Source of the DNA: Bacteroidota bacterium
GTDB lineage: Bacteria; Bacteroidota; Bacteroidia; UKL13-3
Direction of reading: 5' to 3'
Assembly: GCA_027482225.1 (NCBI GenBank)
Contig: JAIXWD010000016.1
Span: forward strand, 142,050-206,049
DNA length: 64,000 nt
Below, piece after piece: positions 3,157 through 20,177 of the stretch (the first letter of the stretch is position 1; every line of letters starts with the position of its first letter). The position numbers and the translations under genes are program-made. The notes beneath the pieces are model-generated. The model did no database searches. It was not told the origin of the DNA and was given only the letters and a program-made list of their open reading frames with translations.

Positions 3157-3864
3157 ATGTTAAGATTTCTTTATTTAGACGAACATGAATTGTGTCGTAT
3201 TGGTTTCAAAACCATTTTATCCGAAATTTCACCTTCATATATTTTAGATGATGCAGCTAACGCTGAGGAATTACTTAGCCTCTTTAAATTGCATTCACAC
3301 AGCATTGTTATAATTGAAATTAACCTCACTAATACCAATGTATACGAATTAGTTCTACAGATTCTAGAATTAAATGACAATTGTAAAATATTAATCTTGT
3401 CTTCTTTAAGTGAAAAACTATATGCCATTAATTACATTAAAATTGGCGTTAAAGGATTTGTAGCCAAATACGAATCGGCTAAAACTATTAAAGAAGCAAT
3501 TAATGCTATGGTTAATAATAAACGCTTTTTTAGTGATACTGTTATTGATATGCTTTTAAATTTATCTTACAATACACCACGCTCTAATTTGGCTGATAAA
3601 CCTCATGTTAATGGAAGTAATAGGGTAATAGTTCAGCCCAAACTTAGTTTAAAAGAAAGTGAAATATTAAGGATGATTTTACAAGGTATGGGTACCAAAG
3701 AAATTGCTAATGCAAATAGCATAAGATTAAATACCGTTAGCACATACAAATCGAGAATTTTTGAAAAATTTAACGTGAAAAATCTTGTTGAATTAATGCA
3801 AATTGTGAAACAAAATAACATGTATGATGCCTCAGGAATTGAACAGCATTATACACAATATTAG
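3157..3864 (+). CDS. Atypical LuxR/NarL-family response regulator with a Glu at the phospho-acceptor position
   Basis: The C-terminal LuxR-type HTH (ESEILRMILQGMGTKEIANANSIRLNTVSTYKSRIFEKF) is clear. The N-terminal receiver-like domain aligns to NarL with conserved Ser/Thr (ILSSLSE) and Lys (GFVAKYE). The acceptor Asp is replaced by Glu (IVIIEINL) and the acidic pair DD is DE. Confidence 0.75.
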   Translation: MLRFLYLDEHELCRIGFKTILSEISPSYILDDAANAEELLSLFKLHSHSIVIIEINLTNTNVYELVLQILELNDNCKILILSSLSEKLYAINYIKIGVKGFVAKYESAKTIKEAINAMVNNKRFFSDTVIDMLLNLSYNTPRSNLADKPHVNGSNRVIVQPKLSLKESEILRMILQGMGTKEIANANSIRLNTVSTYKSRIFEKFNVKNLVELMQIVKQNNMYDASGIEQHYTQY

Positions 3865-4036: not shown

Positions 4037-7000
4037 ATGTTTAAAGTTACATCAATTAGGGTAATAACACTACTGTTATTAGTTTTTATTCATTTTTCTG
4101 GTCATTCTCAAAATACTTTAGATGGTGTTGGTTTAACCGCAGCAACACCTTCTACAGTTTCATTTAGTTTACGTAAATTAAGTTCTTCATACTCGGGCCC
4201 AGCAATCCAAGTTAGGCGCAGTTCCGATAACGCCACACAAAATATTGGCTTTGATGTGAATGGTAACCTAGATACTGCTGCTCTTATTTCATGGGTGAGC
4301 AGTGGGTCTGGTTTTGTTTCTATTTGGTATGACCAAAGTGGTAATGGATTAAATGCTACACAAGCTACAGCGGCTAACCAACCAGCAATTGTCATTTCAG
4401 GTAATATTAATAGATATAATGGAAGAGTTGCCATAAGTTTTGATGTTATTAGCCAGCACTTTGCTATTTCTTCATTACCCAACACTTTGGTATGGACTAA
4501 CGGTGTATCATCCAATGCAGTTGTTGCATTTAATAATAATGCAAATTGGGCAAGAGTATACGATTTTGGAAATGGAGCAGGAAATAATAACATTCTACTT
4601 ACTCGCAATAGTACTAGTAATACAATAACATTTAGTTTATATGATGGAGGTAATACAACTGCACAACCTTCCGTAACCAATGCTATATCAACAGGCATCA
4701 ATAATATTTATACTACCATTCAGTCGGCTGCTACTTACCCTGGTTCAGCGGCAACCAATATACGCGTAAATGGATCGGCACAAACAACTGCTCCAGCAAC
4801 ATCTAATATCACCCAGCAGGTTACACGTACAAGTAATTTTATTGGCAGGAGCAATTGGAGTGGTGATGCCTATTTTAATGGCAGTATGCAAGAGTTGTTG
4901 TTTTTTAATGTTGCTTTAACAACAACTCAGGCTCAAACACTTGAAAATAGTCAAAGTAGTTACTATTCAATAAATCAACCAACTATCACAAGTACCGCAA
5001 CAGGTGGTAATTGGACAAGTCCTTCAACTTGGGTTGGAGGTGTTGTGCCAAGCAGCACTAATAACGTGGTAATTGCAACTACAGGAGCAAATGCTGTTAC
5101 ATTAAATACGACTGCTACTGTAAATAACTTGGTAATTAATAGTAACTCTAGATTAAATACCGGAGTAAATTCAATAAGTGTATCAGGAGCATTAACATGT
5201 AATGGGATAATATTAACAGCTAGTAGTCAAGGTGTAATTGGAACATTTCCCGGGTTACCATTAAATCGAATTATTTTAAATACGGGTTCTACTGTAGATT
5301 ACATCGGAACAACTTCACAAAATATTTCACCATTAACTTATGGTAATTTAACAGTAAGCAATACTTCTGCACCTAGCACTTTAACAGGTACAACAAGTGT
5401 AGCAGGAAATTTAACCATAAATACCTCTGCTATTTTAGATAAAAGTACTTTTGGTTTAACAGTTAGTAATACTATTTTTAATAACGGAACTTTTAGAACA
5501 AGTGGTGGACGACTTTCAACAGCTGGTGGTACTGCTTATAATTTAGCTTTTGCTACTGGTGCAAATACCTTAGATACTTTAATCGTGAATAGGTCAGCAC
5601 CCATTACATTAACTTCGCCATTAACTATAAATAACTTATTAACGTTAACCAGTGGTATACTAACGGTACCTGCTGGTAATTTAACCCTTTCAACTAATGC
5701 AATTGCAACAGGTGGTTCTAACACTGCATTTATAAACGGACAAGTAATTGTTAATACAAATACCACAAACAGCAGAAACATACCTTTAGGCAAAAACAAT
5801 TTACTTGGTTCAATATCTCTAATGCCTGAATCATCTGCGGCATCAACCTATACTTTAGAGTATTTTAATGGGGCTGGTGTTACTCCTAATTCAGGAAACT
5901 TAGGGGCAGGTTTAGCAGGTGTTGCTACCAATCAATTTTGGAGTATAACTAAAATTGGTACTAATGCTTCATTTACCTTCAATTACAATAGTTCACCGGG
6001 AGGTACCAATGCTCAACAAATTACATTAGTTAAGCGTACAGGAGGTCAGTGGGTTATACAACCAACCTATAGTAGTAGCATGGCTAACGCTTCTAGTGGG
6101 CAAGCCACATCTGTAAATGCCATTACTGGTAGTTATGGTGATTTTGGTTTAGGATTTATTAATGGAGCAGCTGAAAATGGTTTAGATAGTATAGGTTTAA
6201 CAGCCGCTACACCTGCTGCTGCAGCTTATGCCATGCGCAAATTAAGAAGTGCATACAATGGAGCTGCCTTACGTATTAGAAGAAGCAATGATAATTTAGA
6301 AACCAACATTGGTTTTGATGCAAATGGTCATTTAGATACAACTGCAATTAAAACTTTTACGGGTGTAAATGATGCTTATGTTACCACATGGTACGACCAA
6401 AGTGGTAATAACCGTAATTTTATACAAAACACCCTTGCCAACCAACCTCGAATTGTGTTAGCAGGTGTAATAGATCGTAAAAACGGACAGCCCGCCATTA
6501 GGCATTTGGCAGCAAATACCCATAACCTTAATGTTAATACAGGTGGTTTTGTAACCAATAATAACCCCTGGAGCGTAAGCACTGTATCTGGTTTAGATGG
6601 TGGTGCAAACCAAAGGGTGCTAAGTGGTAACACCAATTGGTTTTTAGGATTTCATGGTGGAGGTGAGAGAAGAGCCTTTTTTGCTAATGTATGGATGCGA
6701 TACAATGGGGTAGATAATTATAACAACGCCACAGCAACTACAAACAACCAAATATACACTGCCGTATCTAATGGAAGCAGCGCAAGTGTATTTAACAATG
6801 GTATGCAATTAGCGGGCACTGTGCCTTCAGGAAATACCTCAATTGGAACATTGTCTACAGGTGGTGGTTTTGGTGAATTCTCAAACTGTGTGGTTCAAGA
6901 AGTAATCATCTTTTCATCAGCTTTATCTTCAGCAAATAGAGCAAGTATAGAGCGAAGCCAAGGACTATATTATGCCATTGGTAATTTTGCCATAAGCACG

Positions 7001-10000
7001 CCTGCAGGTGGTAATTGGAGTAACCCAGCAACTTGGGAAAATGGGGTAGTGCCCACAACATCATCAGATGTGGTGATAAACGCAACAGCAGGTGCTGTGG
7101 TTTTAGATATAAATACCAGTATACGATCAATTAATAACGCACATTTGGCCACCCTAAATTTAGGAGCCGCCAATAACATTACAACGTCTTTAGATGTGAT
7201 TAACCAAGGCACATTAATTACTGCACATCCAAACGGATTAATAGGTAGTAGTGCATCTTTAAATATTGGTGGTACCATTTTAAATACGGCATACAATACC
7301 AGTCGTGTGGTATACAATGGAGCTAATCAATTGGTTAATCCGATATCTTATCGAAATTTAAGTTTATTAAATACGAGCAGTACAAAAACATTGCTTATAG
7401 GTTCGGTAACAACAGTTAGCGACACACTTTTTATAGATAATGGTGTTACGTTTAATAAATCAGCGAATGATTTAAACCTAGCTTGTTTAACTGGCACGGG
7501 TTTATTGTCATCTACAGGTGGTTTACTGCGTTTTAATACTTTTAATATTGCCAATATTGGAACATTACGCATGGCACCTGCTCCCAATAATTCTGTTGCA
7601 TTATTTATTTTATCTAATTTTTTCGCTAATGCATCTTTAACATTGGGTACACCATTGCAAGTAACAACAGATGCTACCTTAGATGCTGGAATTTTAAATA
7701 CCGATTCTGTAAACATATTAAGTCTAATAAATGCAAGTACTATAATGAGTAGGTGGAGCCCCGCTACATTTGTTAATGGCCCTGTTCAATTAATAAGTTC
7801 TTCTATTACCACAAGACAAATTGCAGTTGGTAAAAATGGTACGGGAAATCGAATTTTTATTACACCGCAATCTACTGCTACTACTGTATATAATATTGAG
7901 TATTTTAAAGGAAATGGCAGCGTACCTAACACGTCAAGTTTTGATAGTATTGGTTTGTTTAAAGTATATGATAACCAGTATTGGCGCATCAACAGAACAT
8001 CGGGTGTGGCTAATATTAGGGCTGAATTCGCTTTGAATACAGCTATTAACGGTGGCGTTGCCACAGAAACAGTAACTTTAGCCAATTTTGTGGGTGGTCA
8101 GTGGGTTTCTGTTCCAATTGATAGATTTTTATCGGCTACTGCAGCATTACCTACAGCTATTGCCACCCCTGTGGCAATTAGTAATACGGGGTTATTTGCA
8201 TTTGCCAGCGAAAAAGCAATTGCAACAGCACAAAGTGGCGCATGGAATAACCCCAACACATGGGCTGGTGGATTGGTACCCTCTGTATTTCAATCAACTT
8301 TTATTTCGCCTGGCCATACAGTTGCTGTTTCATCTGCGGCTGAAGCATTAAGTATTACGGTTGCTGCTGGCGCTACATTAGATTTAACTACCAACCAAAT
8401 TACTGGAACCTCGAGTGGTATAATAAATAATGGCACAATATTAACTTCACGCAATGCAGGTTTAATAGGAAGTGGCGCATCTTTACCTGCATGCAATACA
8501 ACTAATACCATTTTAAATGCTGGCAGTAGGGTTATTTATAACGGTGGAGGAGCACAAACAATAAGTGCTCTTACCTACAGGAAATTAACCATAAACAATT
8601 CAGCTTCTACTAAAACATTAGCCGGTAACACGGTTGTTTCCGATTCTTTAACTATTAGTACATTATGTACACTAAATAAAGGGGGATTTAATTTAAATTT
8701 AAACAATGGTATTTTTGGTAGCGGATTTTTACAATCAACAGGTGGTGCTTTTACACTTAGTGGTAATGCATTAAGAAACACCATACAGCTAAATAATTTT
8801 GCCAATACTACAATAAATATTAACTCAACGGCATCTGTTACTGATGTTAGTGCAATTACCCACAGTGGTTTAACTTTAAACATGCAAGCAACTGGTGCAA
8901 CCGACACTGTAAATTTAGTTACACCGCTTTCTGTTGCAAATATTTCGTTGTCTTCAGGATTCATTAAAACAGATTCCATTAATATTTTAACATTAACCGG
9001 AAACGGTACTTATGGTTCAAATGCTTCATACATTAATGGACCTGTGCAGTTTAATACCAGTTCAACCAACAACGTAATACTTGGTTTGGGTAAACAGGGC
9101 ACTTCAAGTAATGTAATAATTACCCCAACTACATCAGTTGCTACCGTTTGGCGAGCAGAGTACTATAGAAGTACACCAACTGCCGCACCTTTAGCTTCTA
9201 ATTTGTTGGGTTTAGGTAATAATCATTATTGGACACTAAGCAGAAACAACACCAACAACGCCATAGTTTCTGTTGGTATTAATCAAGCTGCTGGTGGCAC
9301 ATCTGCCAATACTTTAAAGATGGCTATGTTTACCAACAATACGTGGGGTAATGTACCCATAACAGAAAATACAATATTGGCTAATACCAATATAGCTACA
9401 ATAACATCAGCATCAAGTGTGGTTTTAAATAGCAGTGCTGGTGAAATAGATTATTTCGCATTAGGATTTGGCTCATTGCCTGGTGCACTTCACACTATTG
9501 CAAATGGTAATTGGACTAATCCTGCAATATGGAGCACCAATATTGTTCCATCTACAGGCGATAGCGTAACCATACGCACAGGTTTTACTGTAAATTTAGA
9601 TACAACTATTTTACCAGGTACAGGTCCAAGCACAGTATTAATTCAAACAAATGCTAAACTTAATATCAATTCGGGAGTTATATATTACAACTCTGGAGCT
9701 AATAATAATTTAGTACAAAGCTTAATAACTACAGGTGCTAATCCTTCTGTTGTGTTGGGTTTAAGAAGGCTTTCATCAACATACAATGGTCCTGCAATAC
9801 AGGTAAGAAGGGGTAGTGATAATGTCCTACAAGATGTATTTTTTACATCAGCTGGTAATTTAAATACCAGCACCTTATTGAATTTTGCAGCGGGTTCAAG
9901 TTTGTTTGTGGTAAGGTGGTACGATCAATCTGGTAATGGAAGAGATTTTGTACAAAATACGCCAGGTAACCAACCACGAATTGTAAACAATGGGGTATTA

Positions 10001-13000
10001 GAAATCAAAAATAACCAACCCGCCATAAGGCACATAGCCGCTAATAACAATTTCTTATTTGGTGGTTCGTTGGGTTTAGCTAATAATTTCTTTACCGTAA
10101 ATGTAGTGTCTTCTAATGATGGCGCCACAACAGGCCGGATGTTATCATCTGAAGCCAATAATTGGATGCTAGGCTTTCATCCGGGTATAGAACGTACTGC
10201 ACATTTTGGTGGTGGGAATTGGCAAGTTTACAACACACCTACTACCCCAGCTAACCAAATTTATACCGCTGTTGGTCAAAATACTAATAATGCATTAATA
10301 TATAGAAACGGAACTTTACTACCATTATTGGCTGTGCCATCTAACCGCCCAATTGATTTGAGAACCGCAGGAGCTTATGCTCAGTGGGCTGATGGAACCA
10401 TGCAAGAAATAGTAATTGTACCAACTGCATTAAATGATGCTCAAAGGAACTCAATTGAAAATTCGCAACAATCTTATTATTTAAATGGGGTTTCATTTAT
10501 AACAACTAATGGTATCATCAACAATGGTACAATAGGAATTGCAGATGCCAACGGGTTAGATTCTGCTGTTGTTGGTACTGGTCCAATTTTTAATTCAAGT
10601 TCAACTTTAAATTACAATGGTAGCAGTCAAAATATAACAGCAGTTGTAGCTTCCAATTTGGTATTATCTGGTTCGGGTACTAAAACAATGGTTGGCGATG
10701 TTACTGTTACAGGAAATTTAACGGTTAACAGTGGAATAACGTTTAACAAATCAAACCGCAACTTAAGTTTTTCAGGAACCACCATTACCAATAATGGTAT
10801 AATGCAATCTACGGGAGGTACTTTATCACTTACAGGTAGTGGTAACATTAACATTGGGTTTAATGATGCTACAAATAATGTGTTAGGTAATTTAGTATTA
10901 AGCAGGGGAGGTTCTCATACGCTAACAAATCCTTTAACGATTAATACAAGTATTGCATTAAACAATGGTATTTTAAATACTACAGTTACAAATATAATTA
11001 ACCTTGGTGGCAAAGCAACTACAATAGGTGGCAGTAATACCAGCCACATCAACGGGCCATTAAATTTAATTACAAATTCCTTGTTTCAAAGAACTGCACC
11101 TATAGGTAAAAACAATATGTATGCTCCAGTTCAAATTCAACCACAAACACAAACACAAACAACATACACTGTGCAATACTTTAATGGTGCAGGTGTTACA
11201 CCAAATTCCAACAACAGAGGCCCAGGTATTATAGGTGTTGCAACCAACCAATATTGGAGTATTACCAGAAATAACAGTAACAATGCCATTGTAGGTGTTG
11301 GTTTTAACACAAGTGCAGGTGGTACCAGTGCACAGCAATTGGTGCTAGCCAACAAAATTATCAACACTTGGACACGTAACTCAGTAAACAATACCATATT
11401 AGGTAATGCAATATCAGGTAATTTTGCAACGCAAAGTTTTGTTTCAAATTTTGGTGATTTTACTTTAGGTTACACAAGTGCGTTACCAGATAATGGCTTG
11501 GATAGTTTGGGATTGAATAACACCACAACAACTTCACTTGCTTTAAGCCTACGCAGGTTAAGAAGTGCTTACCAAGGCCCTGCTATAAGGGTTAATCGTT
11601 TAAGAGATTCTGCCGAATTAGACATTTATTTCCAAGACAATGGTTTTTTAGATACCTTAACCTTAAAGAATTTTGCAGCAGGCGCAACAGGAGAAAACTT
11701 GGTTACGTTTAGCGAGGATTTTGATAATTCGGTTTACATCAGAAATGGATCCTCAGCATACAGTATTTTTCCTAATGTAGCCCTTTCACCAATTGGCACA
11801 CTTACTGCCGATTCTATGAACCTAGGTCGCACCAATGGGCAGTGGGATGTGTTTCGTCAAATAAATAATTTAGTAATTGGGCGTACCTATACTTTGTCTA
11901 TGTATATAAGGCTAGGTACTGCCAATAATTTTAATGTGGTTGTAAATAATACCGCTGCTTGGAACACCATTGGTGGTAATTCTTATAATGCCAGCAATGC
12001 CTCATTAAATAATGCAACATGGCAGCGCATAAGCTATACTTTTGTTTGCCCTGCAACCGGTAGGGTTAACGTGCATTTAGGTAGCCATGGCGGTAATCAA
12101 ACTGGCGTTACAGCACAAAGCAATGGTTCTGTTTATATTTGGGGTTTTCAGCTAGAAGAAGGGAGTTCTGCTAATATGTATATTGCCACTGGGCCAATTA
12201 GCATACTTAATTCCGTTAACGTAAAAACATGGTACGATCAAAGTGGTAATGGAAGGCATGCAGTACAAAATAATATTTTTTTACAACCCACTTTAACCTT
12301 AAATGGTGTAATTAATTACATGAATAACAAACCATCTATGTTATATGATGGTGTTGATGATGGTTTTTTAATTAATAACATACCAACAGTTAATAACAAT
12401 GTAAATAGCTTATTCTGGGTGCAACGCGCTACAAAAAACACATACATGAATTTATTCCCTAATACATCTCCCTCAAACGGAATAATCAATTCGGGTAATA
12501 GAATGTTGTTAGCCAGTTTAGGCGATGGAAGTACGGACGTAATAACGGGATTAACCAATAATATTTCCTCGTTTTTAATTAATGGTTTCCAAACAGGTTG
12601 GAGCTCATCTACCACGCGAAATGTGGTTCATCAAGCTTTACAATTTAATCCGTCTATTGTTAATTCGTTAAACCAGCCGTTTAACTTTAATGGTAATATG
12701 GTAATAGCTAACGGACATACAGGTTGGAATTTTGGTGGTGATATGCCCGAAATAGTGGTAACTACTTCTACGTTAGATAGTGCAAGACGCGTTGCGGTTG
12801 AATTAAGTATGGGCAGGTATTATGGCATTGTTACCAAAGAAAGTGATGCTTGGGTAAGTACAGATGTTGGTGGAAACTGGAGCGATATCAATACTTGGGT
12901 ACAAAACTCTGTACCACCTGCAGGAGCAGCTATTGCCATTGCAACAAAGGGAAATAATAGTGTAGTATTAGATACAACCATGACATTCTCTGGTATTACC

Positions 13001-16000
13001 GTGCGTGCAGGTGCAACCCTTAATTTAGGCAATAGTAGAACAACCACATTAAGCGGCCAATTAATTAATAATGGAACTATTATCACATCACATCCTAATG
13101 GTTTAACTGGTGTTTCTGCATCTGTAGTAGGAACAGTAACGCATAATATTGGAAGTACAATTATTTATAATGGTAGCAGCCAAATAGTCACTCCAACAAG
13201 TTACCGAAACTTAAGGGTAAGTGGATTAAATACCATAAAAACAATGGCAATGGGGGCATTAACAGTAAATGATACCCTTACTATAGATTCTGGAGTAACG
13301 TTTGTACAATCAAACAGTGCATTAACTTTAAACGGTAATATATCTGGTACTGGTTTTTTACGACCTAATCCAAGCAATGCAATAAGTATTGGTGGGGGTA
13401 ATGGTGGTAATTTCGGAACTATTCATTTTGATACCCTTACTAATATGAATATAGTGGGTACATTTACTTTAAATAGATCTGGAATTAATCCGTCACTAAC
13501 ACTTGGAAATAACTTACAAGCAAACTCATCAGTTAACCTAAACAATGGATTATTAAATACAAGTAATGGTGCCCTACTAATATTAAATAATATTGGTACA
13601 ATTGGTTCAGGTGGTTCGTATATTAATGGCCCTGCTAGGTTAATTAATGCATCAACTAATACAAATAGAACGATTCACGTAGGTAAAAATGGTCTTTTAG
13701 GAGCAGTTACAATCAATCCTGGTGCAACAAGTTCTACCTCTTGGGATGTTCAATACTTTGGAAGTACACCTGCAAATATTGGTAATGTTAGTGGTACTAT
13801 ATCATCATTAAGCCCAACACAGTATTGGAGTGTAACCAAAAACAGCTCACCAGCTGCAAGTCCAATTTTAGCATTTAATTTTAACCAAGCTCCGGGCGGG
13901 TTGGCAACATCAAGTTTGGCATTGGTAAGGTATCTAACCAATTGGCAGTTGGTGCCTGTTACAGCAAATAGCCTTAATGGTTTATCAGCAAGTGGTACCT
14001 TAACTACTTCTGGTTCTGTATCGTTTCCTGTTGGAGTAAATGGCAATGATTTTGCAATTGGTTATCCAGCACCATTTGAAACTAAAAAATCGGGTAATTG
14101 GAGAGATACATCTGTATGGGTTATGGGTGCAGTTCCTCCTTTGGGTTCAAGGGTATTTATAAGAGCTTCTCATGTGGTTACCGTAGATACTACAATTGCA
14201 ACAGCAGGTACACCATCAAGTATATCTATTTTAAATGGAGGGGAGTTGGTATTCAATTCAATAAATACAATTGGTGCTGTGGCAAGTGGAGTAACTGTTG
14301 CAGGAACTTTAACCACTGCTCATGCTGGTGGAATTAGCACAAGTATAGCGGGCACTATTACCTTTAGTAATGGTAGCCGTTTACGCTACAATGGAGCAGC
14401 TCAAAATGTAACAGCGATAGATTGTGAAGAGCTTGTATTAGAAGGTTCTGGAACAAAAACGCAAACAGGAGCAATATTGGTGAACGATACATTATTAATT
14501 GGTAATGGAATTACGTTTGCTAATTTAACACAAACACTTACTCTATATGGTAATTATGTGTCAAATGGTGGAGGCATAAGTAGCAGCAATGGGAATATAA
14601 TTGTTGGTGGATCGTTAGGTGGTCATTTTGGTAGTTTAAACTTATCTGGAACATTGGCAAACTTTACATTTAGAAGATATGGATCATCACCATCTTTAAA
14701 TGTGGTTAATCCGTTTAGCGTAGCTAATTTAGTTATCGAAAATGGGATAATAAACACAGATACTAACAATGTAATTACATTAACAGGATCGGCAACTTTA
14801 GGTTCATCATCTGCCCATATCAATGGTCCAATAAGGGTAATAACCACATCAGTTTCACCTTTAATTTTACCAATTGGTAAAGGAGGAATTTTAGGTTCTA
14901 TTAATTTTACTCCAAGTACCGCTTCAACAACAACTTGGTATGCCGAGTACTTTAATGCGGCACCAGGAAATACCAATGTTGATACAACCATTAGTTCAAT
15001 AAGTGCATCACAATATTGGTTGTTTAGCCGCTTATCAGGTACAGCCAATGCCGCAGTTACTTTTAATTTTAATAAATCTGCAGGAGGTAACTCATCACAG
15101 GCAATTACTTTAGCACGTTTTGCTTCATCAGCTTGGACACTTCAAAATACGGCATTAAATAATTTAAATGGTGCCACCGTAAATGGTTCATTAAGTTTGC
15201 CAACGCAATCTTTATTCAGTTATTTCGGTGTTGGGTTTTTTAATGAGTTTTTTTCTGTAGCCTCTGGCAACTGGTCTAGTCCTTCTACTTGGAATACCAA
15301 TTCGGTTCCTACATCATCTGCTCGAGTTACCATAAATTCAGGACATGTTGTTAATGTTTTAGGTACCATTAATCCTAAAAGTATAATAATAGAGGCAAAC
15401 GCCCAACTTAACTTAGATACTTTCCAAGTAATTGGTCAGGATGTTACAGTTGATTTAATAGGTACAATTGAAACGGCTCGTGCAGGTGGGTTAATAGGCA
15501 CAGGTGCATCCATTGAACAAGGTAATATTTTGTTAGGTTCATTCGCCAAGGTAGTATACAATGGCTCGGTTCCGCAAGTATTATCGCCATTAAGTTACCG
15601 TAAATTGGTTATAGCAAATCCAGCGGGAGTAACAGCAGGTAACAATCTTATACTTGGCGATTCATTCATTGTATCTTCAGGATTTTTAAATCTCTCAACA
15701 TTCAATCTTACATTAACCGGTGGCTTTAATATGGAATCTAATGCTAGGGGTATTAGAGCAAGTGGAAACAATAACATACAGATTTCATCATCAGGTAATC
15801 TTATGATGGATACCACTGTTAGAGGTGTTACAAATAGGTTGGCTAACTTAACTATAACTGGATCTAATTTAGTAACGCTTTTAAATTTCCTTGAGGCCAA
15901 AGTAGAAGTTAGTGTGAGTGGAGCTAATTTAAACAGCAATGGATTTCTAACATTAATTTCTGATTCATTAGGCACTGCAAGAGTAGCTGCATTGGTATCG

Positions 16001-17662
16001 CCTGCTCAAATAACAGGTAATGTAATTGTGCAGAGGTATATTCCTGCTATAACCCGTAGATCTCGACAGCTTACTTCACCAGTGACTGGTTTTACCTATA
16101 ATCAATTAATTGATGACATTTTCGTTACTGGCCCTGTCGGTGGTATAGGATTCGATATTTCTACTACCAATAATGCATCAATTAATACTTATAACGAACA
16201 AACATCTAACGGAAGGGGCAATAAACCAGTCCAAAATATTAATGACACATTGTTGCCAGGTTTAGGGGCTTTTGTTTTCATTAGGGGAGACCGAACTCTT
16301 CCTTCGCCACAATGGTTTACTCCACCGTTTGTGCCACAAAATGCAGTTACATTAGATTTTGTTGGACCAATTAATCAAGGAGTAGTTTCTCCGCAAATAA
16401 CCTATACACCCACAGGTACACCAACTAATGATGGTTGGAATATGGTAGGAAATCCTTTCCCATCACCAATTGATTGGAGCTTGGTAAATAAAACTGGTTT
16501 AACACCTTTTTACTATACACTAAATCCTTCAACAGGTTCATCTGTGGCTGCTAATGTAGGTATTATAGCATCTGGTCAAGGTATATTTGTACAAGCCTCA
16601 TCAGCTAATCCTACCATTACTTTTAGTGAGTCTTCAAAAGTTTCTGGTACTCCTACAAATTATTTTAAAACCAGTACACCGCCATTATTAATTACCATGA
16701 CAAGGGATGCATTAAATAGTGATGTTGCTATGATGAATTTTAATGCAACATATAGCAGGTCATTTAACAATATGGAAGATGCCTTTAAAATGACAAATGC
16801 TGTTATAAATCTTTCTTTATATGCTGGTACAACGCCTGTTCAAATAAATGGTTTACCAATATTATCTCCATTGGCAACTGATACGTTTGATATAGGTGTA
16901 GATGCTTCTGCTGGTAATTATTCTTTACGATTTAATAATTTAATTGCTATACCAACTGGCTTAAATAGTTATTTAATAGATAGGATGCTTAATACCACTT
17001 TACCAATAGTTGCTGGTGTTGATTATCCGTTTAGTATATCAAGCAGCCCTGCATCGTTTGGTAAAAGATTTGCGATTGTTTTTTCTCCGCTTAATCCTTT
17101 ACCTATTAAGTTACTTAGCTTTAATGCAGCTAAAAGTAATGATAACGTGGTGTTAAATTGGCGCACAGCTTCCGAGTTAAATATGCAAAGTCATATTTTA
17201 GAAAGAAAACTTAGCACTGATTTAACATTTAAAGAAATAGCAGTTATTAAGCCTAATACGGGTGCAGTAGTTGCAACTAACTATGCATACACCGATGCTG
17301 ATATACTAAATAATGCCAGTGGTTTAATATGCTACAGGATAAAGTTGGTAGAAACAAATAAATCATCGTTAAACAGTCATGTTGTTTGTATAGATCCAGT
17401 CATTACAACATCTGCAGCCAACATTTTACTGTTACCAAACCCAGCTCAAGAGGGCGATGTGGTAAAATTAAAAATAGCAGGTTTACAATACGATAGTTAT
17501 GAAATACATGTTGTTGATCTGCTAGGAAGAGTAATACATAAGCAACTAAGTACTACAAACGATATAGATATTGATACCAAACAATTTGATTCTGGTATTT
17601 ATAATATTTTGTTGTTGTCTGATGGCGTTTTGTTGGGAACATCAAAGTTATCAATACAATAA
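4037..17662 (+). CDS. Giant (4541 aa) T9SS-secreted cell-surface protein containing signal peptide, repeated LamG-like jellyroll domains, seven beta-solenoid-like supermodules, one CBM-like insertion, a conserved pre-CTD domain and a type-A T9SS CTD
   Basis: Uninterrupted 13.6 kb ORF. The N-terminal signal peptide is MFKVTSIRVITLLLLVFIHFSGHSQ. The motif (R/K)(K/R)L(S/R)S.Y.GPAI.V.R..D followed by WYDQSGNG....QP.IV recurs at ~4325, 6389, 9917 and 12229. Seven G(G/N)W..P.TW..G.VP...D.V.I motifs occur at ~5004, 7007, 8237, 9506, 12869, 14093 and 15266, each followed by YNG..Q.V...SYR.L, INGP and EYF.G...YW motifs. The C-terminus (LLPNPAQEGDVVKLKIAG...GIYNILLLSDGVLLGTSKLSIQ) is a Por secretion tail. 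Confidence 0.85.
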   Translation: MFKVTSIRVITLLLLVFIHFSGHSQNTLDGVGLTAATPSTVSFSLRKLSSSYSGPAIQVRRSSDNATQNIGFDVNGNLDTAALISWVSSGSGFVSIWYDQSGNGLNATQATAANQPAIVISGNINRYNGRVAISFDVISQHFAISSLPNTLVWTNGVSSNAVVAFNNNANWARVYDFGNGAGNNNILLTRNSTSNTITFSLYDGGNTTAQPSVTNAISTGINNIYTTIQSAATYPGSAATNIRVNGSAQTTAPATSNITQQVTRTSNFIGRSNWSGDAYFNGSMQELLFFNVALTTTQAQTLENSQSSYYSINQPTITSTATGGNWTSPSTWVGGVVPSSTNNVVIATTGANAVTLNTTATVNNLVINSNSRLNTGVNSISVSGALTCNGIILTASSQGVIGTFPGLPLNRIILNTGSTVDYIGTTSQNISPLTYGNLTVSNTSAPSTLTGTTSVAGNLTINTSAILDKSTFGLTVSNTIFNNGTFRTSGGRLSTAGGTAYNLAFATGANTLDTLIVNRSAPITLTSPLTINNLLTLTSGILTVPAGNLTLSTNAIATGGSNTAFINGQVIVNTNTTNSRNIPLGKNNLLGSISLMPESSAASTYTLEYFNGAGVTPNSGNLGAGLAGVATNQFWSITKIGTNASFTFNYNSSPGGTNAQQITLVKRTGGQWVIQPTYSSSMANASSGQATSVNAITGSYGDFGLGFINGAAENGLDSIGLTAATPAAAAYAMRKLRSAYNGAALRIRRSNDNLETNIGFDANGHLDTTAIKTFTGVNDAYVTTWYDQSGNNRNFIQNTLANQPRIVLAGVIDRKNGQPAIRHLAANTHNLNVNTGGFVTNNNPWSVSTVSGLDGGANQRVLSGNTNWFLGFHGGGERRAFFANVWMRYNGVDNYNNATATTNNQIYTAVSNGSSASVFNNGMQLAGTVPSGNTSIGTLSTGGGFGEFSNCVVQEVIIFSSALSSANRASIERSQGLYYAIGNFAISTPAGGNWSNPATWENGVVPTTSSDVVINATAGAVVLDINTSIRSINNAHLATLNLGAANNITTSLDVINQGTLITAHPNGLIGSSASLNIGGTILNTAYNTSRVVYNGANQLVNPISYRNLSLLNTSSTKTLLIGSVTTVSDTLFIDNGVTFNKSANDLNLACLTGTGLLSSTGGLLRFNTFNIANIGTLRMAPAPNNSVALFILSNFFANASLTLGTPLQVTTDATLDAGILNTDSVNILSLINASTIMSRWSPATFVNGPVQLISSSITTRQIAVGKNGTGNRIFITPQSTATTVYNIEYFKGNGSVPNTSSFDSIGLFKVYDNQYWRINRTSGVANIRAEFALNTAINGGVATETVTLANFVGGQWVSVPIDRFLSATAALPTAIATPVAISNTGLFAFASEKAIATAQSGAWNNPNTWAGGLVPSVFQSTFISPGHTVAVSSAAEALSITVAAGATLDLTTNQITGTSSGIINNGTILTSRNAGLIGSGASLPACNTTNTILNAGSRVIYNGGGAQTISALTYRKLTINNSASTKTLAGNTVVSDSLTISTLCTLNKGGFNLNLNNGIFGSGFLQSTGGAFTLSGNALRNTIQLNNFANTTININSTASVTDVSAITHSGLTLNMQATGATDTVNLVTPLSVANISLSSGFIKTDSINILTLTGNGTYGSNASYINGPVQFNTSSTNNVILGLGKQGTSSNVIITPTTSVATVWRAEYYRSTPTAAPLASNLLGLGNNHYWTLSRNNTNNAIVSVGINQAAGGTSANTLKMAMFTNNTWGNVPITENTILANTNIATITSASSVVLNSSAGEIDYFALGFGSLPGALHTIANGNWTNPAIWSTNIVPSTGDSVTIRTGFTVNLDTTILPGTGPSTVLIQTNAKLNINSGVIYYNSGANNNLVQSLITTGANPSVVLGLRRLSSTYNGPAIQVRRGSDNVLQDVFFTSAGNLNTSTLLNFAAGSSLFVVRWYDQSGNGRDFVQNTPGNQPRIVNNGVLEIKNNQPAIRHIAANNNFLFGGSLGLANNFFTVNVVSSNDGATTGRMLSSEANNWMLGFHPGIERTAHFGGGNWQVYNTPTTPANQIYTAVGQNTNNALIYRNGTLLPLLAVPSNRPIDLRTAGAYAQWADGTMQEIVIVPTALNDAQRNSIENSQQSYYLNGVSFITTNGIINNGTIGIADANGLDSAVVGTGPIFNSSSTLNYNGSSQNITAVVASNLVLSGSGTKTMVGDVTVTGNLTVNSGITFNKSNRNLSFSGTTITNNGIMQSTGGTLSLTGSGNINIGFNDATNNVLGNLVLSRGGSHTLTNPLTINTSIALNNGILNTTVTNIINLGGKATTIGGSNTSHINGPLNLITNSLFQRTAPIGKNNMYAPVQIQPQTQTQTTYTVQYFNGAGVTPNSNNRGPGIIGVATNQYWSITRNNSNNAIVGVGFNTSAGGTSAQQLVLANKIINTWTRNSVNNTILGNAISGNFATQSFVSNFGDFTLGYTSALPDNGLDSLGLNNTTTTSLALSLRRLRSAYQGPAIRVNRLRDSAELDIYFQDNGFLDTLTLKNFAAGATGENLVTFSEDFDNSVYIRNGSSAYSIFPNVALSPIGTLTADSMNLGRTNGQWDVFRQINNLVIGRTYTLSMYIRLGTANNFNVVVNNTAAWNTIGGNSYNASNASLNNATWQRISYTFVCPATGRVNVHLGSHGGNQTGVTAQSNGSVYIWGFQLEEGSSANMYIATGPISILNSVNVKTWYDQSGNGRHAVQNNIFLQPTLTLNGVINYMNNKPSMLYDGVDDGFLINNIPTVNNNVNSLFWVQRATKNTYMNLFPNTSPSNGIINSGNRMLLASLGDGSTDVITGLTNNISSFLINGFQTGWSSSTTRNVVHQALQFNPSIVNSLNQPFNFNGNMVIANGHTGWNFGGDMPEIVVTTSTLDSARRVAVELSMGRYYGIVTKESDAWVSTDVGGNWSDINTWVQNSVPPAGAAIAIATKGNNSVVLDTTMTFSGITVRAGATLNLGNSRTTTLSGQLINNGTIITSHPNGLTGVSASVVGTVTHNIGSTIIYNGSSQIVTPTSYRNLRVSGLNTIKTMAMGALTVNDTLTIDSGVTFVQSNSALTLNGNISGTGFLRPNPSNAISIGGGNGGNFGTIHFDTLTNMNIVGTFTLNRSGINPSLTLGNNLQANSSVNLNNGLLNTSNGALLILNNIGTIGSGGSYINGPARLINASTNTNRTIHVGKNGLLGAVTINPGATSSTSWDVQYFGSTPANIGNVSGTISSLSPTQYWSVTKNSSPAASPILAFNFNQAPGGLATSSLALVRYLTNWQLVPVTANSLNGLSASGTLTTSGSVSFPVGVNGNDFAIGYPAPFETKKSGNWRDTSVWVMGAVPPLGSRVFIRASHVVTVDTTIATAGTPSSISILNGGELVFNSINTIGAVASGVTVAGTLTTAHAGGISTSIAGTITFSNGSRLRYNGAAQNVTAIDCEELVLEGSGTKTQTGAILVNDTLLIGNGITFANLTQTLTLYGNYVSNGGGISSSNGNIIVGGSLGGHFGSLNLSGTLANFTFRRYGSSPSLNVVNPFSVANLVIENGIINTDTNNVITLTGSATLGSSSAHINGPIRVITTSVSPLILPIGKGGILGSINFTPSTASTTTWYAEYFNAAPGNTNVDTTISSISASQYWLFSRLSGTANAAVTFNFNKSAGGNSSQAITLARFASSAWTLQNTALNNLNGATVNGSLSLPTQSLFSYFGVGFFNEFFSVASGNWSSPSTWNTNSVPTSSARVTINSGHVVNVLGTINPKSIIIEANAQLNLDTFQVIGQDVTVDLIGTIETARAGGLIGTGASIEQGNILLGSFAKVVYNGSVPQVLSPLSYRKLVIANPAGVTAGNNLILGDSFIVSSGFLNLSTFNLTLTGGFNMESNARGIRASGNNNIQISSSGNLMMDTTVRGVTNRLANLTITGSNLVTLLNFLEAKVEVSVSGANLNSNGFLTLISDSLGTARVAALVSPAQITGNVIVQRYIPAITRRSRQLTSPVTGFTYNQLIDDIFVTGPVGGIGFDISTTNNASINTYNEQTSNGRGNKPVQNINDTLLPGLGAFVFIRGDRTLPSPQWFTPPFVPQNAVTLDFVGPINQGVVSPQITYTPTGTPTNDGWNMVGNPFPSPIDWSLVNKTGLTPFYYTLNPSTGSSVAANVGIIASGQGIFVQASSANPTITFSESSKVSGTPTNYFKTSTPPLLITMTRDALNSDVAMMNFNATYSRSFNNMEDAFKMTNAVINLSLYAGTTPVQINGLPILSPLATDTFDIGVDASAGNYSLRFNNLIAIPTGLNSYLIDRMLNTTLPIVAGVDYPFSISSSPASFGKRFAIVFSPLNPLPIKLLSFNAAKSNDNVVLNWRTASELNMQSHILERKLSTDLTFKEIAVIKPNTGAVVATNYAYTDADILNNASGLICYRIKLVETNKSSLNSHVVCIDPVITTSAANILLLPNPAQEGDVVKLKIAGLQYDSYEIHVVDLLGRVIHKQLSTTNDIDIDTKQFDSGIYNILLLSDGVLLGTSKLSIQ
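4990..16100 (+). repeat. Seven diverged intragenic tandem supermodules of ~1.2 kb (~400 aa) within the giant gene, repeated at protein level
   Basis: The ordered motif series GxW..P.TW / YNG..Q / INGP / EYFxG..YW recurs seven times. There are no long identical DNA repeats, so the duplication is ancient or diversified. Confidence 0.6.
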
Positions 17663-17679: not shown

Positions 17680-18324
17680 ATGAATTTGGCATATCAAATT
17701 ATTATAAAGAGGGGAGTTTTTTTCAGTTTATTATTTTTAACAGCTTTCGATTCCATAGCCCAAAGCGCTTATGGTCAAGCGGGGGATGATGATATCTATA
17801 GTGACTATGGTTATCAGTATTCAAACTATTCTAATTCTGTTTATGAGTTTTCTGAAGAAGAAAAATATAGAAAAAGGCAAGAACGGTTTTATAAAAAAAG
17901 CTACGATGAAGAAGATTTATATAATGGTGGATACAGGGTGAAAAGTCGTTCATCGGAAGTTGATTATTACGCTTTTGGAGGTATTGGCTCAGGTAATATT
18001 GGTAATAGCGTTAAATCATGGTTTAATAGAGACAGTAAAAATGAATCACCTTTACCGAGTAACCAAGAAAAATATAACAACAACGAGGTTGGAACAATTG
18101 ACGGCATTGATAGGTTGGGTGAGGATGGAAAAAGCGGTTTAGCCAACAACAAAGATAATGGTGAGATTTTACAACCAAAAGATGATAAACAAACCGAAAC
18201 CGCACCACCACCGCCAGATGAACCTGATATTCCAATTACAAGTCCTTTATTAAGTATACTCATGATTGTTATAATGATAGGTGTAGCTGTTTTTAACTTA
18301 TCAAACAGATTTAAGATATTATGA
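17680..18324 (+). CDS. Tail-anchored secreted protein that is acidic, Tyr/Asp/Glu/Asn-rich low-complexity, and has a Pro-rich stalk and C-terminal transmembrane helix
   Basis: It has a signal peptide (FFSLLFLTAFDSIAQSA), low-complexity acidic region, PPPPDEPDIP stretch and a C-terminal hydrophobic helix (LLSILMIVIMIGVAVF). It starts 18 bp after the giant gene's stop codon. Confidence 0.55.
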   Translation: MNLAYQIIIKRGVFFSLLFLTAFDSIAQSAYGQAGDDDIYSDYGYQYSNYSNSVYEFSEEEKYRKRQERFYKKSYDEEDLYNGGYRVKSRSSEVDYYAFGGIGSGNIGNSVKSWFNRDSKNESPLPSNQEKYNNNEVGTIDGIDRLGEDGKSGLANNKDNGEILQPKDDKQTETAPPPPDEPDIPITSPLLSILMIVIMIGVAVFNLSNRFKIL

Positions 18325-19457
18325 AAATTAAAACTCTTGTTTTAACTTTAGTTTTGTTTTGTGCATCAACATGCATAGATGTGCAATCACAATCATTATT
18401 TGATAAGAGTACAATAACTGCCCATTCATCTTTAGGTAGAAATTACATCATTAATAATGAATTAGGTAATCCGGGAATGACTTGGACATTGGGCACCTTA
18501 TTTAATTTGGCTAATGTAGTTACTTTAGGATCTAATTACGCTGTGGGGAGTTCTAGCGGTGTAGAAGCTGAGGGAAGTTACAGAAATTCATTTAGAATTT
18601 ATGATGTTGATATTGGGTATATTAAAACATTTAAAAATGCAAAAAGCAACATAATAAATAAGTCATCACTTTCTATTTGTGGTGGTGTTGCACTTTTTCA
18701 TACTAATATTAATTCTTGGAGTGTTAAAAAGGGACTTGCAATATACGATATGTCTTTTTTCTCCTATAAGTTAGGAGCTGGCTACTCTTATAAATTAAAC
18801 GAATTATTAACAGCTAAGGCCAATGTTTCATATTATTTAACATTAACTAATTTATTAGATGGTTTAAACACTGGTAGTAAAGATGATTTACTGGTTTTTT
18901 CGTTAGGCCTTGGTTATAATATAAATGCTTTTGATGCGAGAAAGGAAAGATTACTCCTTTACAATGCGATTCAAGAAAACATAACTATAAACAACAAATT
19001 GTTAATGGAGATTGCAAAAATTGATGGTCAAAGTAAACAAGGAATTAAGAATAATGAATCTCAAAATGGATTAGTAAATGTTAAATCGGATTCAATCTTT
19101 AAAGACAAAGCAGTTAACAATTCAGATTCTTTAAAAATACCTTTAAGTTACACACTTGAAAATGCACCAGAAAAAAATAACGATTCAGTTAAGTATACTA
19201 TAAAGTACCCCCGACATAAATACAATGTAGTATTCGGAGGCTTTTTTAGCATAAAAAATGCACTTTCTGAAGTTGCAAAGATGAAGAAATCTGGTATTAA
19301 TGCTGAGCCCTATTGGAAAGGAGATAAAAGTAAACTGGTGTTTTTAGTTGTTTTCTCTAGTAATGATTATCAGGAAGCCCAAGAGAAGGTTAGATCTTTT
19401 AGGAAAAAGGGATACACTGATGTATGGTTATATACATCTAATTCAACCAAAAAATAA
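18321..19457 (+). CDS. Outer-membrane beta-barrel protein fused to a C-terminal SPOR (septal peptidoglycan-binding) domain
   Basis: It has a signal peptide. The N-terminal ~200 aa show alternating amphipathic beta-strand character with Y/G-rich turns, as in OMP beta-barrels. The C-terminal ~75 aa (YNVVFGGFFSIKNALSEVAKMKKSGINAEPYWKGDKSKLVFLVVFSSNDYQEAQEKVRSFRKKGYTDVWLY) fit the SPOR pattern. Its start overlaps the upstream gene by 4 bp (ATGA). Confidence 0.55.
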   Translation: MKIKTLVLTLVLFCASTCIDVQSQSLFDKSTITAHSSLGRNYIINNELGNPGMTWTLGTLFNLANVVTLGSNYAVGSSSGVEAEGSYRNSFRIYDVDIGYIKTFKNAKSNIINKSSLSICGGVALFHTNINSWSVKKGLAIYDMSFFSYKLGAGYSYKLNELLTAKANVSYYLTLTNLLDGLNTGSKDDLLVFSLGLGYNINAFDARKERLLLYNAIQENITINNKLLMEIAKIDGQSKQGIKNNESQNGLVNVKSDSIFKDKAVNNSDSLKIPLSYTLENAPEKNNDSVKYTIKYPRHKYNVVFGGFFSIKNALSEVAKMKKSGINAEPYWKGDKSKLVFLVVFSSNDYQEAQEKVRSFRKKGYTDVWLYTSNSTKK

Positions 19458-19463
19458 TTTTAA

Positions 19464-20177
19464 ATGAATATTCAAAATCAATCAGAATTTGATTCGAGGT
19501 ATGATTTATTCTTACATGCTGCTCACGAATTAAACACTCCTTTAACGTCTTTAGTAATGGCAACCTTTTTATTAAAGAACGATAAGACGAATTTTGAAAG
19601 TAGGCAAAAATTTTTAAATAGCGTAAATGTTATTGAACGTTCTTGTGATAGACTTCAACGAACCATAAATAATGTAATTCTTTATCATCGATTACAACAA
19701 CCTAATTTCCCAGTATACGATCAAAAGTTAGTAGAGGTGCTTTTTCTTATAAGAGAATGCGCAGAAAAAATATCAAATCAACAAGGTAGAACTGGTGATA
19801 TTGTTTTTAATTTTTCTTTAGATTCTGATGTTGGGTTGTTAATTCCACGTGAATATTTTATGGTAATGATTAATGAGTTAATTCATAATGCATTTAGCTT
19901 TTCTGAAGTTGGATCAAAAGTTATAATCAATTATAGACTATCAAATAAATTTGGTGTTTTTTCTATTACCGATTTTGGCATTGGTATGGGAAAAGAAGAG
20001 GTATCGGCAATAGGTGCTTATACTCAATTTAACAGAGGAATATTGGAACAACAAGGCTTAGGGTTAGGGTTAACTTTAGTGAAACAATTAACGGATAAAC
20101 ATTTTGGTGAGTTAAAGATTAACTCTAGTAAAGGAAAAGGTACAACCGTTCAGTTATGTATTCCTTTGTATTGTTAA
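19464..20177 (+). CDS. Minimal cytoplasmic histidine kinase with HisKA H-box and HATPase_c, lacking sensor and transmembrane domains
   Basis: The H-box (HELNTPLTSL) begins at residue ~21. The N box is NELIHNAF, G1 is DFGIGMG and G2 is GLGLGLTLV. It has no hydrophobic segments. An in-frame stop immediately upstream precludes a longer N-terminus. Confidence 0.75.
   Translation: MNIQNQSEFDSRYDLFLHAAHELNTPLTSLVMATFLLKNDKTNFESRQKFLNSVNVIERSCDRLQRTINNVILYHRLQQPNFPVYDQKLVEVLFLIRECAEKISNQQGRTGDIVFNFSLDSDVGLLIPREYFMVMINELIHNAFSFSEVGSKVIINYRLSNKFGVFSITDFGIGMGKEEVSAIGAYTQFNRGILEQQGLGLGLTLVKQLTDKHFGELKINSSKGKGTTVQLCIPLYC

Follow-up and report, generated by a model that had tools for sequence, protein, structure and literature searches.

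A 4541-residue T9SS cargo with seven predicted beta-helical supermodules and four ConA/LamG-like domains, one of them nested, in an uncultured Bacteroidota bacterium

Giant T9SS cargo is abundant in environmental Bacteroidota, and to our knowledge almost none of it has a known function. The G8 domain (PF10162) is found in eukaryotic CEMIP/TMEM2/fibrocystin-type proteins, and a literature search returned no paper in which both T9SS and this domain are mentioned. Proteins above 100 kDa with a C-terminal sorting domain (CTD) have been catalogued for Cytophaga hutchinsonii, the type-A pathway and its attachment complex have been reviewed, and the type-B CTD is the type linked to motility adhesins (PMC11611037).

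The gene described here lies in a stretch of 64,000 nt (the window) from an uncultured, Chitinophagaceae-like organism known from metagenome assemblies alone. Its product is best read, with moderate confidence, as a very large adhesin or glycan-binding fibre on the cell surface of this Chitinophagaceae-like member of the Bacteroidota, probably without enzymatic activity, and is a protein of an ordinary kind for that phylum. The open reading frame (13.6 kb, 4541 aa, zero internal stops) is divided as follows, in window coordinates.

4037..17662, + strand: complete gene, 4541 codons plus stop (same product on two independent contigs; colinear orthologues)
4037..4108, + strand: Sec-type signal peptide, aa 1-24, MFKVTSIRVITLLLLVFIHFSGHS ahead of QN (by inspection of the sequence)
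4109..4981, + strand: A1, ConA/LamG-like jelly roll with a GH54-N-like start, aa 25-315 (PF13385, PF09206)
4982..6148, + strand: M1, supermodule 1, aa 316-704 (motifs, self-BLAST, module alignment, profile)
6149..6991, + strand: A2, ConA/LamG-like, aa 705-985 (PF09206 35 bits; 49% identity to A1 over 127 aa)
6992..8224, + strand: M2, supermodule 2, aa 986-1396 (self-BLAST, module alignment, profile)
8225..9496, + strand: M3, supermodule 3, aa 1397-1820 (self-BLAST, module alignment, profile)
9497..9688, + strand: M4-N, cap and first turns of supermodule 4, aa 1821-1884 (held-out profile positions 2-62, E 4e-9)
9689..10492, + strand: A3, ConA/LamG-like, nested in supermodule 4, which it splits, aa 1885-2152
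10493..11470, + strand: M4-C, remainder of supermodule 4, aa 2153-2478 (profile positions 42-399, E 4e-78)
11471..12856, + strand: A4, ConA/LamG-like, split by an insert, aa 2479-2940 (both ends align with A1-A3)
11693..12220, + strand: phage head-spike-fibre/CBM-like domain inside A4, aa 2553-2728 (NF048003)
12857..14080, + strand: M5, supermodule 5, aa 2941-3348 (self-BLAST, module alignment, profile)
14081..15253, + strand: M6, supermodule 6, aa 3349-3739 (module chosen for the AF2 model)
15254..15988, + strand: M7, cap and beta-helix, without INGP or EYF, aa 3740-3984 (profile positions 4-251, E 8e-32)
15989..17416, + strand: pre-CTD region, 476 aa, aa 3985-4460 (zero Pfam/NCBIfam matches)
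17435..17620, + strand: T9SS type-A CTD, aa 4467-4528 (PF18962, TIGR04183)

The cap motif G.W....W..P is present in exactly seven copies, at aa 324, 992, 1401, 1824, 2946, 3353 and 3744 (nucleotides 5006, 7010, 8237, 9506, 12872, 14093 and 15266). These positions fall within 3 nt of those in a first-pass annotation of the DNA, and the cap-to-cap spacings (2004, 1227, 1269, 3366, 1221 and 1173 nt) are irregular, as stated there. YNG..Q follows all seven caps, while INGP and EYF...YW follow six, module 7 being without both. A supermodule measures ~400 aa and consists of a G8-type cap, a beta-helix and, in six of the seven, an all-beta C-terminal subdomain of ~130 aa; the proposed seven supermodules stand, six of them complete and the last beta-helix only. 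Chunked self-BLAST gave 105 off-diagonal HSPs with 25-52% identity and E-values down to 2e-41, the repeats overall ranging from 1e-9 to 1e-41. When a profile was built from modules 1, 2, 3, 5 and 6, leaving out modules 4 and 7, it recovered module 4 in two pieces (E 4e-9 and E 4e-78) and module 7 (E 8e-32), and the module profile had zero matches among the other ORFs of the window. Asn, Thr, Ser and Gly, whose abundance had been remarked upon, together make up 44.4% of the residues.

The AF2 model of M6 (pTM 0.77, with pLDDT below 50 in parts of the C-terminal subdomain) is beta-helical, as the first reading of the modules had supposed; on this model the modules are right-handed parallel beta-helices of roughly 8-10 turns. 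The GxW...W motif had also been likened to the PATR repeat, a membership that is rejected here: PF12951/TIGR02601 were unmatched in Pfam and NCBIfam both at E<=1 with the whole protein and at E<=5 with ten segments. Judged by its alignment, the motif is more probably a G8-type cap, corresponding to the N-terminal half of the Pfam model, since G.W....W..G.VP...D.V.I aligns to positions 2-67 of the 124 of PF10162. Over these positions only, PF10162 scores 32.6 bits with the whole protein (cut-off 22.9), and the single modules M6, M7 and M1 score 22.7, 16.0 and 11.6 bits against the same cut-off; the cap also weakly matches the Amnionless N-terminus. The G8 proteins share the cap motif and the beta-helix after it, but differ in that the present protein has a bacterial T9SS context and matches only the first half of the model. 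Apart from this partial match, neither Pfam nor NCBIfam offers a model for the ~400-aa supermodule.

Relatives of the module are numerous: an exhaustive profile search with a threshold of E<=1e-10 returned 2651 representative clusters. A word-indexed search with a single module found one 93%-identical fragment only, because of the low-complexity composition, and when PDB sequences were searched, the module profile and A1 by itself each matched ribosomal entries only, by chance. The 100 best module-bearing proteins include 52 that end in a type-A CTD and 11 that end in a type-B CTD (63/100 T9SS); the pairing of module and T9SS CTD is typical, and not unusual for a type-A CTD as had been thought. 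All relatives carry the name "hypothetical", "T9SS type A sorting domain-containing" or "G8 domain-containing", the last including a Limibacter protein in UniRef, and a characterised homologue was not found.

Four copies each of the markers RKLSSSY.GPAI and WYDQSGN (aa 46/97, 734/785, 1910/1961 and 2506/2732) mark the A-domains, whose LamG/ConA jelly-roll identity agrees in fold and in family (in A1, PF13385, Laminin_G_3, scores 38.3 bits against a cut-off of 27.6). The domains had been placed between supermodules, which is correct in part, but A3 sits in a loop of module 4 and separates M4-N from the remainder of that module. In A4 the distance from RRLRSAY to WYDQSGN is 226 aa rather than 51, and the nested 176-aa insert matches NF048003 (GTA_spike_fiber) over positions 8-174 of 182 with 86.1 bits (E 4e-24, cut-off 36), and CBM_4_9 with 25.9 bits, exactly at cut-off. 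The likeness consists of a near end-to-end model match and of phage virion and tail homologues (28-30% identity by tblastn); the difference is that the domain here does not belong to a virion protein but is nested in a LamG unit of a protein secreted by a cell. Both nested insertions (A3 and the phage-type domain) are retained in the orthologue P0002, and the phage-type insert is absent from the more distant orthologue P0003.

The A-domain family has at least 2052 members at E<=1e-5, which are bacterial, ~260-470 aa long and either stand-alone or fused, some of them to T9SS CTDs or prepilin N-termini. Its NCBI label is "arabinofuranosidase catalytic domain-containing". On a rival reading the protein would be a multi-catalytic polysaccharide degrader, in which the A-domains act as GH54-type arabinofuranosidases and the beta-helices as depolymerases or lyases (phage tailspike, PL/GH28-like). 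Such a function is unlikely. PF09206 reaches 36.8 bits in A1 but is limited to positions 8-90 of the 315 in the profile, and a 48-sequence A-family profile aligns solely with residues 13-88 of 1wd3/6sxr (GH54), so that the fungal arabinofuranosidase is matched over no more than its ~75 N-terminal residues, which lie outside the catalytic region. The GH54 catalytic residues are reportedly Glu221 and Asp297; the region that holds the acid and nucleophile is unaligned, and bona fide GH54 membership is rejected. The domain of GH54 alpha-L-arabinofuranosidase B (PF09206; 1wd3, 6sxr) has 315 positions against ~270 aa here, and in structure the A-domain comes closest to lectin and CBM modules, GH54 appearing at rank 39. 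The label on these LamG-like units is thus a likely annotation trap. For the beta-helices, Pfam Beta_helix, Pectate_lyase, NosD and GH28 were unmatched at E<=5, and Pfam and NCBIfam scans of the protein gave no CAZyme, lyase or peptidase family except the N-terminal third of GH54. An alignment of five modules has 39 invariant columns, none of which is Asp, Glu, His or Arg, although catalytic residues could be module-specific and hence hidden in a paralogue alignment.

Both ends of the protein carry predicted export signals. The orthologue P0002 has the same start and the same S.xQN cleavage site (by inspection), and the first-pass assignment to T9SS cargo with a type-A CTD holds, as TIGR04183 (26.8 bits, cut-off 23) and PF18962 (32.3 bits, cut-off 27) both exceed their curated cut-offs in a segment scan; in the whole-protein scan PF18962 scores 28.4 bits and TIGR04183 is not reported. 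The pre-CTD region is kept directly ahead of the CTD in P0003, P0043, P0106 and P0102. The organism encodes T9SS machinery: porZ (PF21544) is found at the window start, 2.5 kb upstream of the gene (seen via locus L001), and three further type-A CTD (Por_Secre_tail) proteins lie within the window. The gene is flanked by a LuxR-type response regulator upstream and a histidine kinase downstream (a two-component system). At the related loci L003 and L004 none of these neighbours was recovered, the sole one retained being the response regulator upstream, in the 93%-identical locus L002; being unconserved beyond it, the two-component flank was dropped as a functional clue, and the genomic neighbours give no functional hint. 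Upstream in L003 lies an unrelated HATPase_c protein.

A gliding-motility adhesin moved along the cell surface, analogous to SprB/RemA of Flavobacterium johnsoniae, would likewise be a T9SS cargo of giant size, repetitive and equipped with lectin-type domains, and the 11 relatives with a type-B (CHU_C) CTD could be taken in its favour. This role appears quite improbable here, as the CTD is type-A, no PorP/SprF-like gene was recognised adjacent (the downstream 378-aa protein is a weak OMP_b-brl match) and no gld/spr motility gene was found among the window ORFs scanned. Membership among SprB-like, type-B adhesins, already discounted in the first-pass annotation, is rejected: TIGR04131/PF13585 (CHU_C) were unlisted at E<=5 with both the C-terminal segment and the passenger, and the SprB-repeat family is missing from the Pfam matches.

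That the gene is an artefact of assembly or annotation (repeats collapsed or joined as chimeras, or a fusion of genes) can be dismissed as extremely improbable, for although metagenome assemblies are error-prone at long repetitive genes, the modules are only 27-39% identical in protein sequence and therefore cannot mis-assemble onto each other, the 13.6 kb run without a stop codon, gene calls on two independent assemblies give the identical protein, locus L002 carries a 93%-identical copy, and other MAGs hold colinear orthologues of 4739 aa (60% identity over aa 1-3978) and 3451 aa. The frame disruption or fusion that had been raised as a concern is accordingly set aside. Positional orthologues share 50-60% identity against 27-39% for paralogous modules, which, together with the insertions retained in P0002, suggests that the domain architecture may be under selection. 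Scans for sigma-70 promoters and terminators gave counts no higher than shuffle expectation, the sigma-70 consensus being ill-suited to Bacteroidota.

The adhesin or glycan-binding fibre favoured above would be carried over the inner membrane by Sec and over the outer membrane by the T9SS. By analogy with type-A cargo, its CTD would then be removed and the PorU/PorV/PorQ/PorZ attachment complex would fix the protein to the surface, so that it is expected to stay anchored and not to be shed into the medium. The beta-helices may serve as rigid spacers, forming a rod of tens of nanometres on which several lectin-like domains would be displayed and could bind multivalently to polysaccharide carried by particles or other cells. 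A more specific version is put forward only tentatively: the supermodule would represent an uncurated, mainly T9SS-associated family with thousands of members, stacked seven times in a small freshwater Chitinophagaceae-like clade, with lectins spliced into loops in "Russian-doll" fashion (CBM-like in LamG, LamG in beta-helix), and the whole would form a rigid rod that binds glycans multivalently and has a defined target, for instance an algal or cyanobacterial polysaccharide. Understanding of the T9SS and of bacterial adhesion is unchanged by this protein, and its value is therefore descriptive and one of domain curation: a clean fold-by-fold parsing of a giant T9SS cargo, a profile that can be reused to find a widespread module without a Pfam or NCBIfam model, and two conserved cases of domain-in-domain nesting.

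No well-characterised named family with the same full architecture, whose existence would have spoken against the first description, turned up in Pfam, NCBIfam, the relatives or the literature. With the large type-A-CTD T9SS cargo, the protein shares the signal peptide, the TIGR04183/PF18962 CTD and a very large repetitive passenger, as well as T9SS genes and other cargo nearby; it differs in its passenger architecture, which is unmatched among characterised members. The beta-helical adhesins compared, namely the Caldicellulosiruptor tapirins (6n2b), the two-partner-secretion proteins HMW1/EtpA and the autotransporter passengers Vag8/UpaB, show 8-12% identity only and resemble it in fold only. 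Identity as a type V autotransporter or TPS exoprotein is rejected, Autotransporter and Haemagg_act being unmatched in Pfam. Those adhesins follow a type V or Gram-positive route, whereas the present protein would follow the T9SS, has neither a PATR repeat nor a beta-barrel translocator, and has its helix cut into seven capped units, with a small all-beta domain in each complete one.

The giant gene appears in the ORF listing of the window as a single ORF (4037..17662, + strand, 4541 codons). Its product combines seven supermodules (M1-M7; G8-type cap, beta-helix and, in all but M7, a C-terminal all-beta subdomain) with four ConA/LamG-like units (A1-A4) and ends in a type-A C-terminal sorting domain (CTD), an architecture conserved among its orthologues.

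Layout of the predicted protein
aa 1-24: signal peptide
aa 25-315: A1
aa 316-704: M1
aa 705-985: A2
aa 986-1396: M2
aa 1397-1820: M3
aa 1821-1884: M4, N-terminal cap
aa 1885-2152: A3, nested in M4
aa 2153-2478: M4, remainder
aa 2479-2940: A4, with a 176-aa insert at aa 2553-2728
aa 2941-3348: M5
aa 3349-3739: M6
aa 3740-3984: M7, helix only
aa 3985-4460: region ahead of the CTD, without family match
aa 4467-4528: CTD (profile match)

Searched as a regular expression, the cap motif G.W....W..P has exactly seven occurrences (aa 324, 992, 1401, 1824, 2946, 3353 and 3744; DNA 5006, 7010, 8237, 9506, 12872, 14093 and 15266), which reproduces the module spacings of 2.0, 1.2, 1.3, 3.4, 1.2 and 1.2 kb reported in the first-pass annotation. 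The sevenfold motif set described there holds for the caps and for YNG..Q, which lies downstream of all seven, but only six of the caps are followed by INGP and EYF...YW; there are four copies each of the LamG markers RKLSSSY.GPAI and WYDQSGN. Chunked self-BLAST of the protein returns 105 off-diagonal alignments (25-52% identity, E down to 2e-41), repetition far beyond chance expectation. An HMM trained on modules 1, 2, 3, 5 and 6 recovers both held-out modules: module 4 as a short match (aa 1820-1883, profile 2-62, E 4e-9) and a separate long one (aa 2136-2480, profile 42-399, E 4e-78), and module 7 as a single match (aa 3742-3984, profile 4-251, E 8e-32), with no further match in the rest of the window. 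Charge is very low throughout the protein (D+E 3.9%, K+R 4.4%). Matches to the Bacteroidota O-glycosylation sequon D[ST][AILVMT] number 27, where 500 shuffles give 12.0 +/- 3.2; part of this excess comes from its placement at conserved repeat positions.

The insertion of A3 into M4 is clean: the preceding sequence stops at the consensus '...LNLG..N.I' and restarts at '...INNGTI.TA..GL'. It is also present in two orthologues, P0002 (4739 aa) and P0003 (3451 aa). In P0002 the order of the seven caps, four A-units and six EYF motifs is unchanged. P0003/P0154 (L004 4559..14914, + strand) lacks A1-M1-A2, beginning straight at a supermodule, and lacks the phage-type insert of A4. Both the N-terminal units and the nested CBM-like domain were therefore gained or lost later within the clade. 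Positional orthologues are 50-60% identical, well above the paralogous modules (only 27-39%), which indicates ancient duplications and preservation of the layout since then. The 476 aa preceding the CTD recur at the same position in P0003 and in the relatives P0043, P0106 and P0102.

The CTD exceeds the cut-offs of both PF18962 (32.3 bits, cut-off 27) and TIGR04183 (26.8 bits, cut-off 23) and matches none of the type-B models, confirming its earlier assignment to type A; the definitions of the two types and the PorU/V/Q/Z attachment route have been reviewed (PMC11611037). The 5' edge of the window (7..1560, + strand) falls within porZ, whose product belongs to the T9SS attachment complex; the fragment has a Reg_prop match and a sub-threshold Por_Secre_tail, and the full 771-aa gene at L001, the locus with the identical giant protein, has PF21544 (PorZ_N_b_propeller). 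Three further type-A CTD cargo genes lie inside the 64-kb window:

26025..28088, + strand: endonuclease I with CTD
41679..44033, - strand: M6 peptidase with PKD and CTD
48967..50724, - strand: 585-aa protein, CTD its only recognised domain

Searched exhaustively against 1.84 billion representatives, the module profile has 6718 matches at E<=1e-3, a number that falls to 2651 at E<=1e-10 and to 243 at E<=1e-30, and matches to the cap plus first turns extend into other phyla. Among the 150 best relatives, near-complete modules occur at least once in 50, at least twice in 16, and three or more times in only four (P0002, P0003, P0004, P0009). Many of the 150 match just 'YNG..Q......Y..L.LSG.G.KT' (profile ~80-200), in many copies, suggesting that this stretch recurs as a repeat across many other giant proteins. 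The combination with a type-A CTD had been called unusual, a view the C-termini of the 100 best relatives do not bear out: 52 carry Por_Secre_tail and 11 CHU_C, making the module typical T9SS cargo material. Close relatives occur in MAGs labelled Bacteroidetes bacterium RE-16jun15-135 (93%), Chitinophagaceae bacterium ME2015 (59%) and Bacteroidia bacterium Prado080 (50%). Source records call the module-bearing proteins 'hypothetical protein' or 'T9SS type A sorting domain-containing protein', with 'G8 domain-containing protein' used in UniRef. A literature search for T9SS and G8 domain in one paper found none. The 90% cluster of P0029 (4797 aa) includes many 43-54-aa Mycobacterium 'acetylglutamate kinase' fragments, which look like a clustering artefact, not biology.

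Within the supermodule, the Pfam match reaches no further than the N-terminal half of the G8 model (positions 2-67 of 124; 32.6 bits for the whole protein and 22.7, 16 and 11.6 bits for single modules, cut-off 22.9), with a weak match to Amnionless N-terminal. PATR, Beta_helix, NosD and pectate-lyase models find nothing in it even at E<=5, nor does NCBIfam, leaving the proposed PATR resemblance unsupported. The beta-helix proposal is supported: an AF2 model of supermodule M6 from the five-module alignment (pLDDT 76, pTM 0.77) predicts a confident all-beta fold for residues 1-260; residues 270-391 are ill-defined yet contain about seven strands. Foldseek of this model against the PDB gives no significant match.

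The A-units are likewise predicted to adopt the proposed ConA/LamG-like fold, A1 scoring above threshold against Laminin_G_3 (38.3 bits). A1-A3 also pass PF09206, restricted to profile positions 8-90 of 315, and their profile matches no fewer than 2052 proteins (E<=1e-5), mostly of 260-470 aa with PF09206; some bear a T9SS CTD, prepilin N-terminus or F5/8-C domain, and some are named 'arabinofuranosidase catalytic domain-containing protein' by NCBI. Against GH54 AbfB structures, a 48-sequence A-unit profile aligns (E 2e-10) only with chain residues 13-88, YDQSGNG included. The A-units therefore have a common origin with the first part of GH54, and the GH54 label extends over no more than a non-catalytic third of that domain; there is no sign that the units are GH54 enzymes. 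The A4 insert matches the phage head-spike-fibre domain NF048003 (86 bits, E 4e-24), scores exactly at the CBM_4_9 cut-off, and in tblastn resembles cyanophage, Nonlabens-phage and Xanthomonas-phage structural/tail proteins (28-30% identity).

Following established T9SS biology (PMC11611037), the protein would be exported by Sec, translocated by the T9SS, relieved of its CTD and attached to the cell surface. Its role is probably non-enzymatic, with multivalent glycan binding by the four LamG units and the phage-type CBM-like domain and a rigid-spacer function for the beta-helices, as judged from the fold neighbours, the lack of a catalytic family and an alignment of modules 1, 2, 3, 5 and 6 in which no acidic, His or Arg position is invariant. 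A polysaccharide-degrading multi-enzyme, the main rival, is unlikely, and keeps its standing because beta-helix depolymerases have the same fold; a gliding-motility adhesin is a doubtful candidate, ranking just below it. That the gene is an assembly artefact is scarcely credible, given the low identity between paralogous modules, the identical protein annotated on two contigs, and, in other MAGs, a 93%-identical copy, the colinear 4739-aa orthologue (60% identity, aa 1-3978) and the 3451-aa orthologue; the translation has no internal stop codon, and the frame disruption or fusion raised as a caveat in the first-pass annotation is absent.

The neighbouring genes are as follows:

3157..3864, + strand: LuxR-type response regulator, 173 nt upstream of the giant gene
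17680..20177, + strand: operon-like downstream trio (gaps 17, -4 and 6 nt), comprising a 214-aa protein (signal peptide, C-terminal TM segment), a 378-aa protein (weak OMP beta-barrel match, C-terminus SPOR-like by eye) and a soluble kinase (HisKA/HATPase_c)

The response regulator is retained at the locus of the 93%-identical copy (L002). No homologues of the flanking genes, downstream trio included, are detectable beside the orthologues at the more distant loci L003 and L004, and the neighbours were dropped as a functional clue.

New as description are the parsed supermodule, for which neither Pfam nor NCBIfam has a curated model, the conserved pair of nested insertions, and the limited, non-catalytic reach of the GH54 label. 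The components themselves are known folds, giant repetitive T9SS cargo adhesins are a well-known class, and the orthologues are already in public databases under hypothetical protein names.
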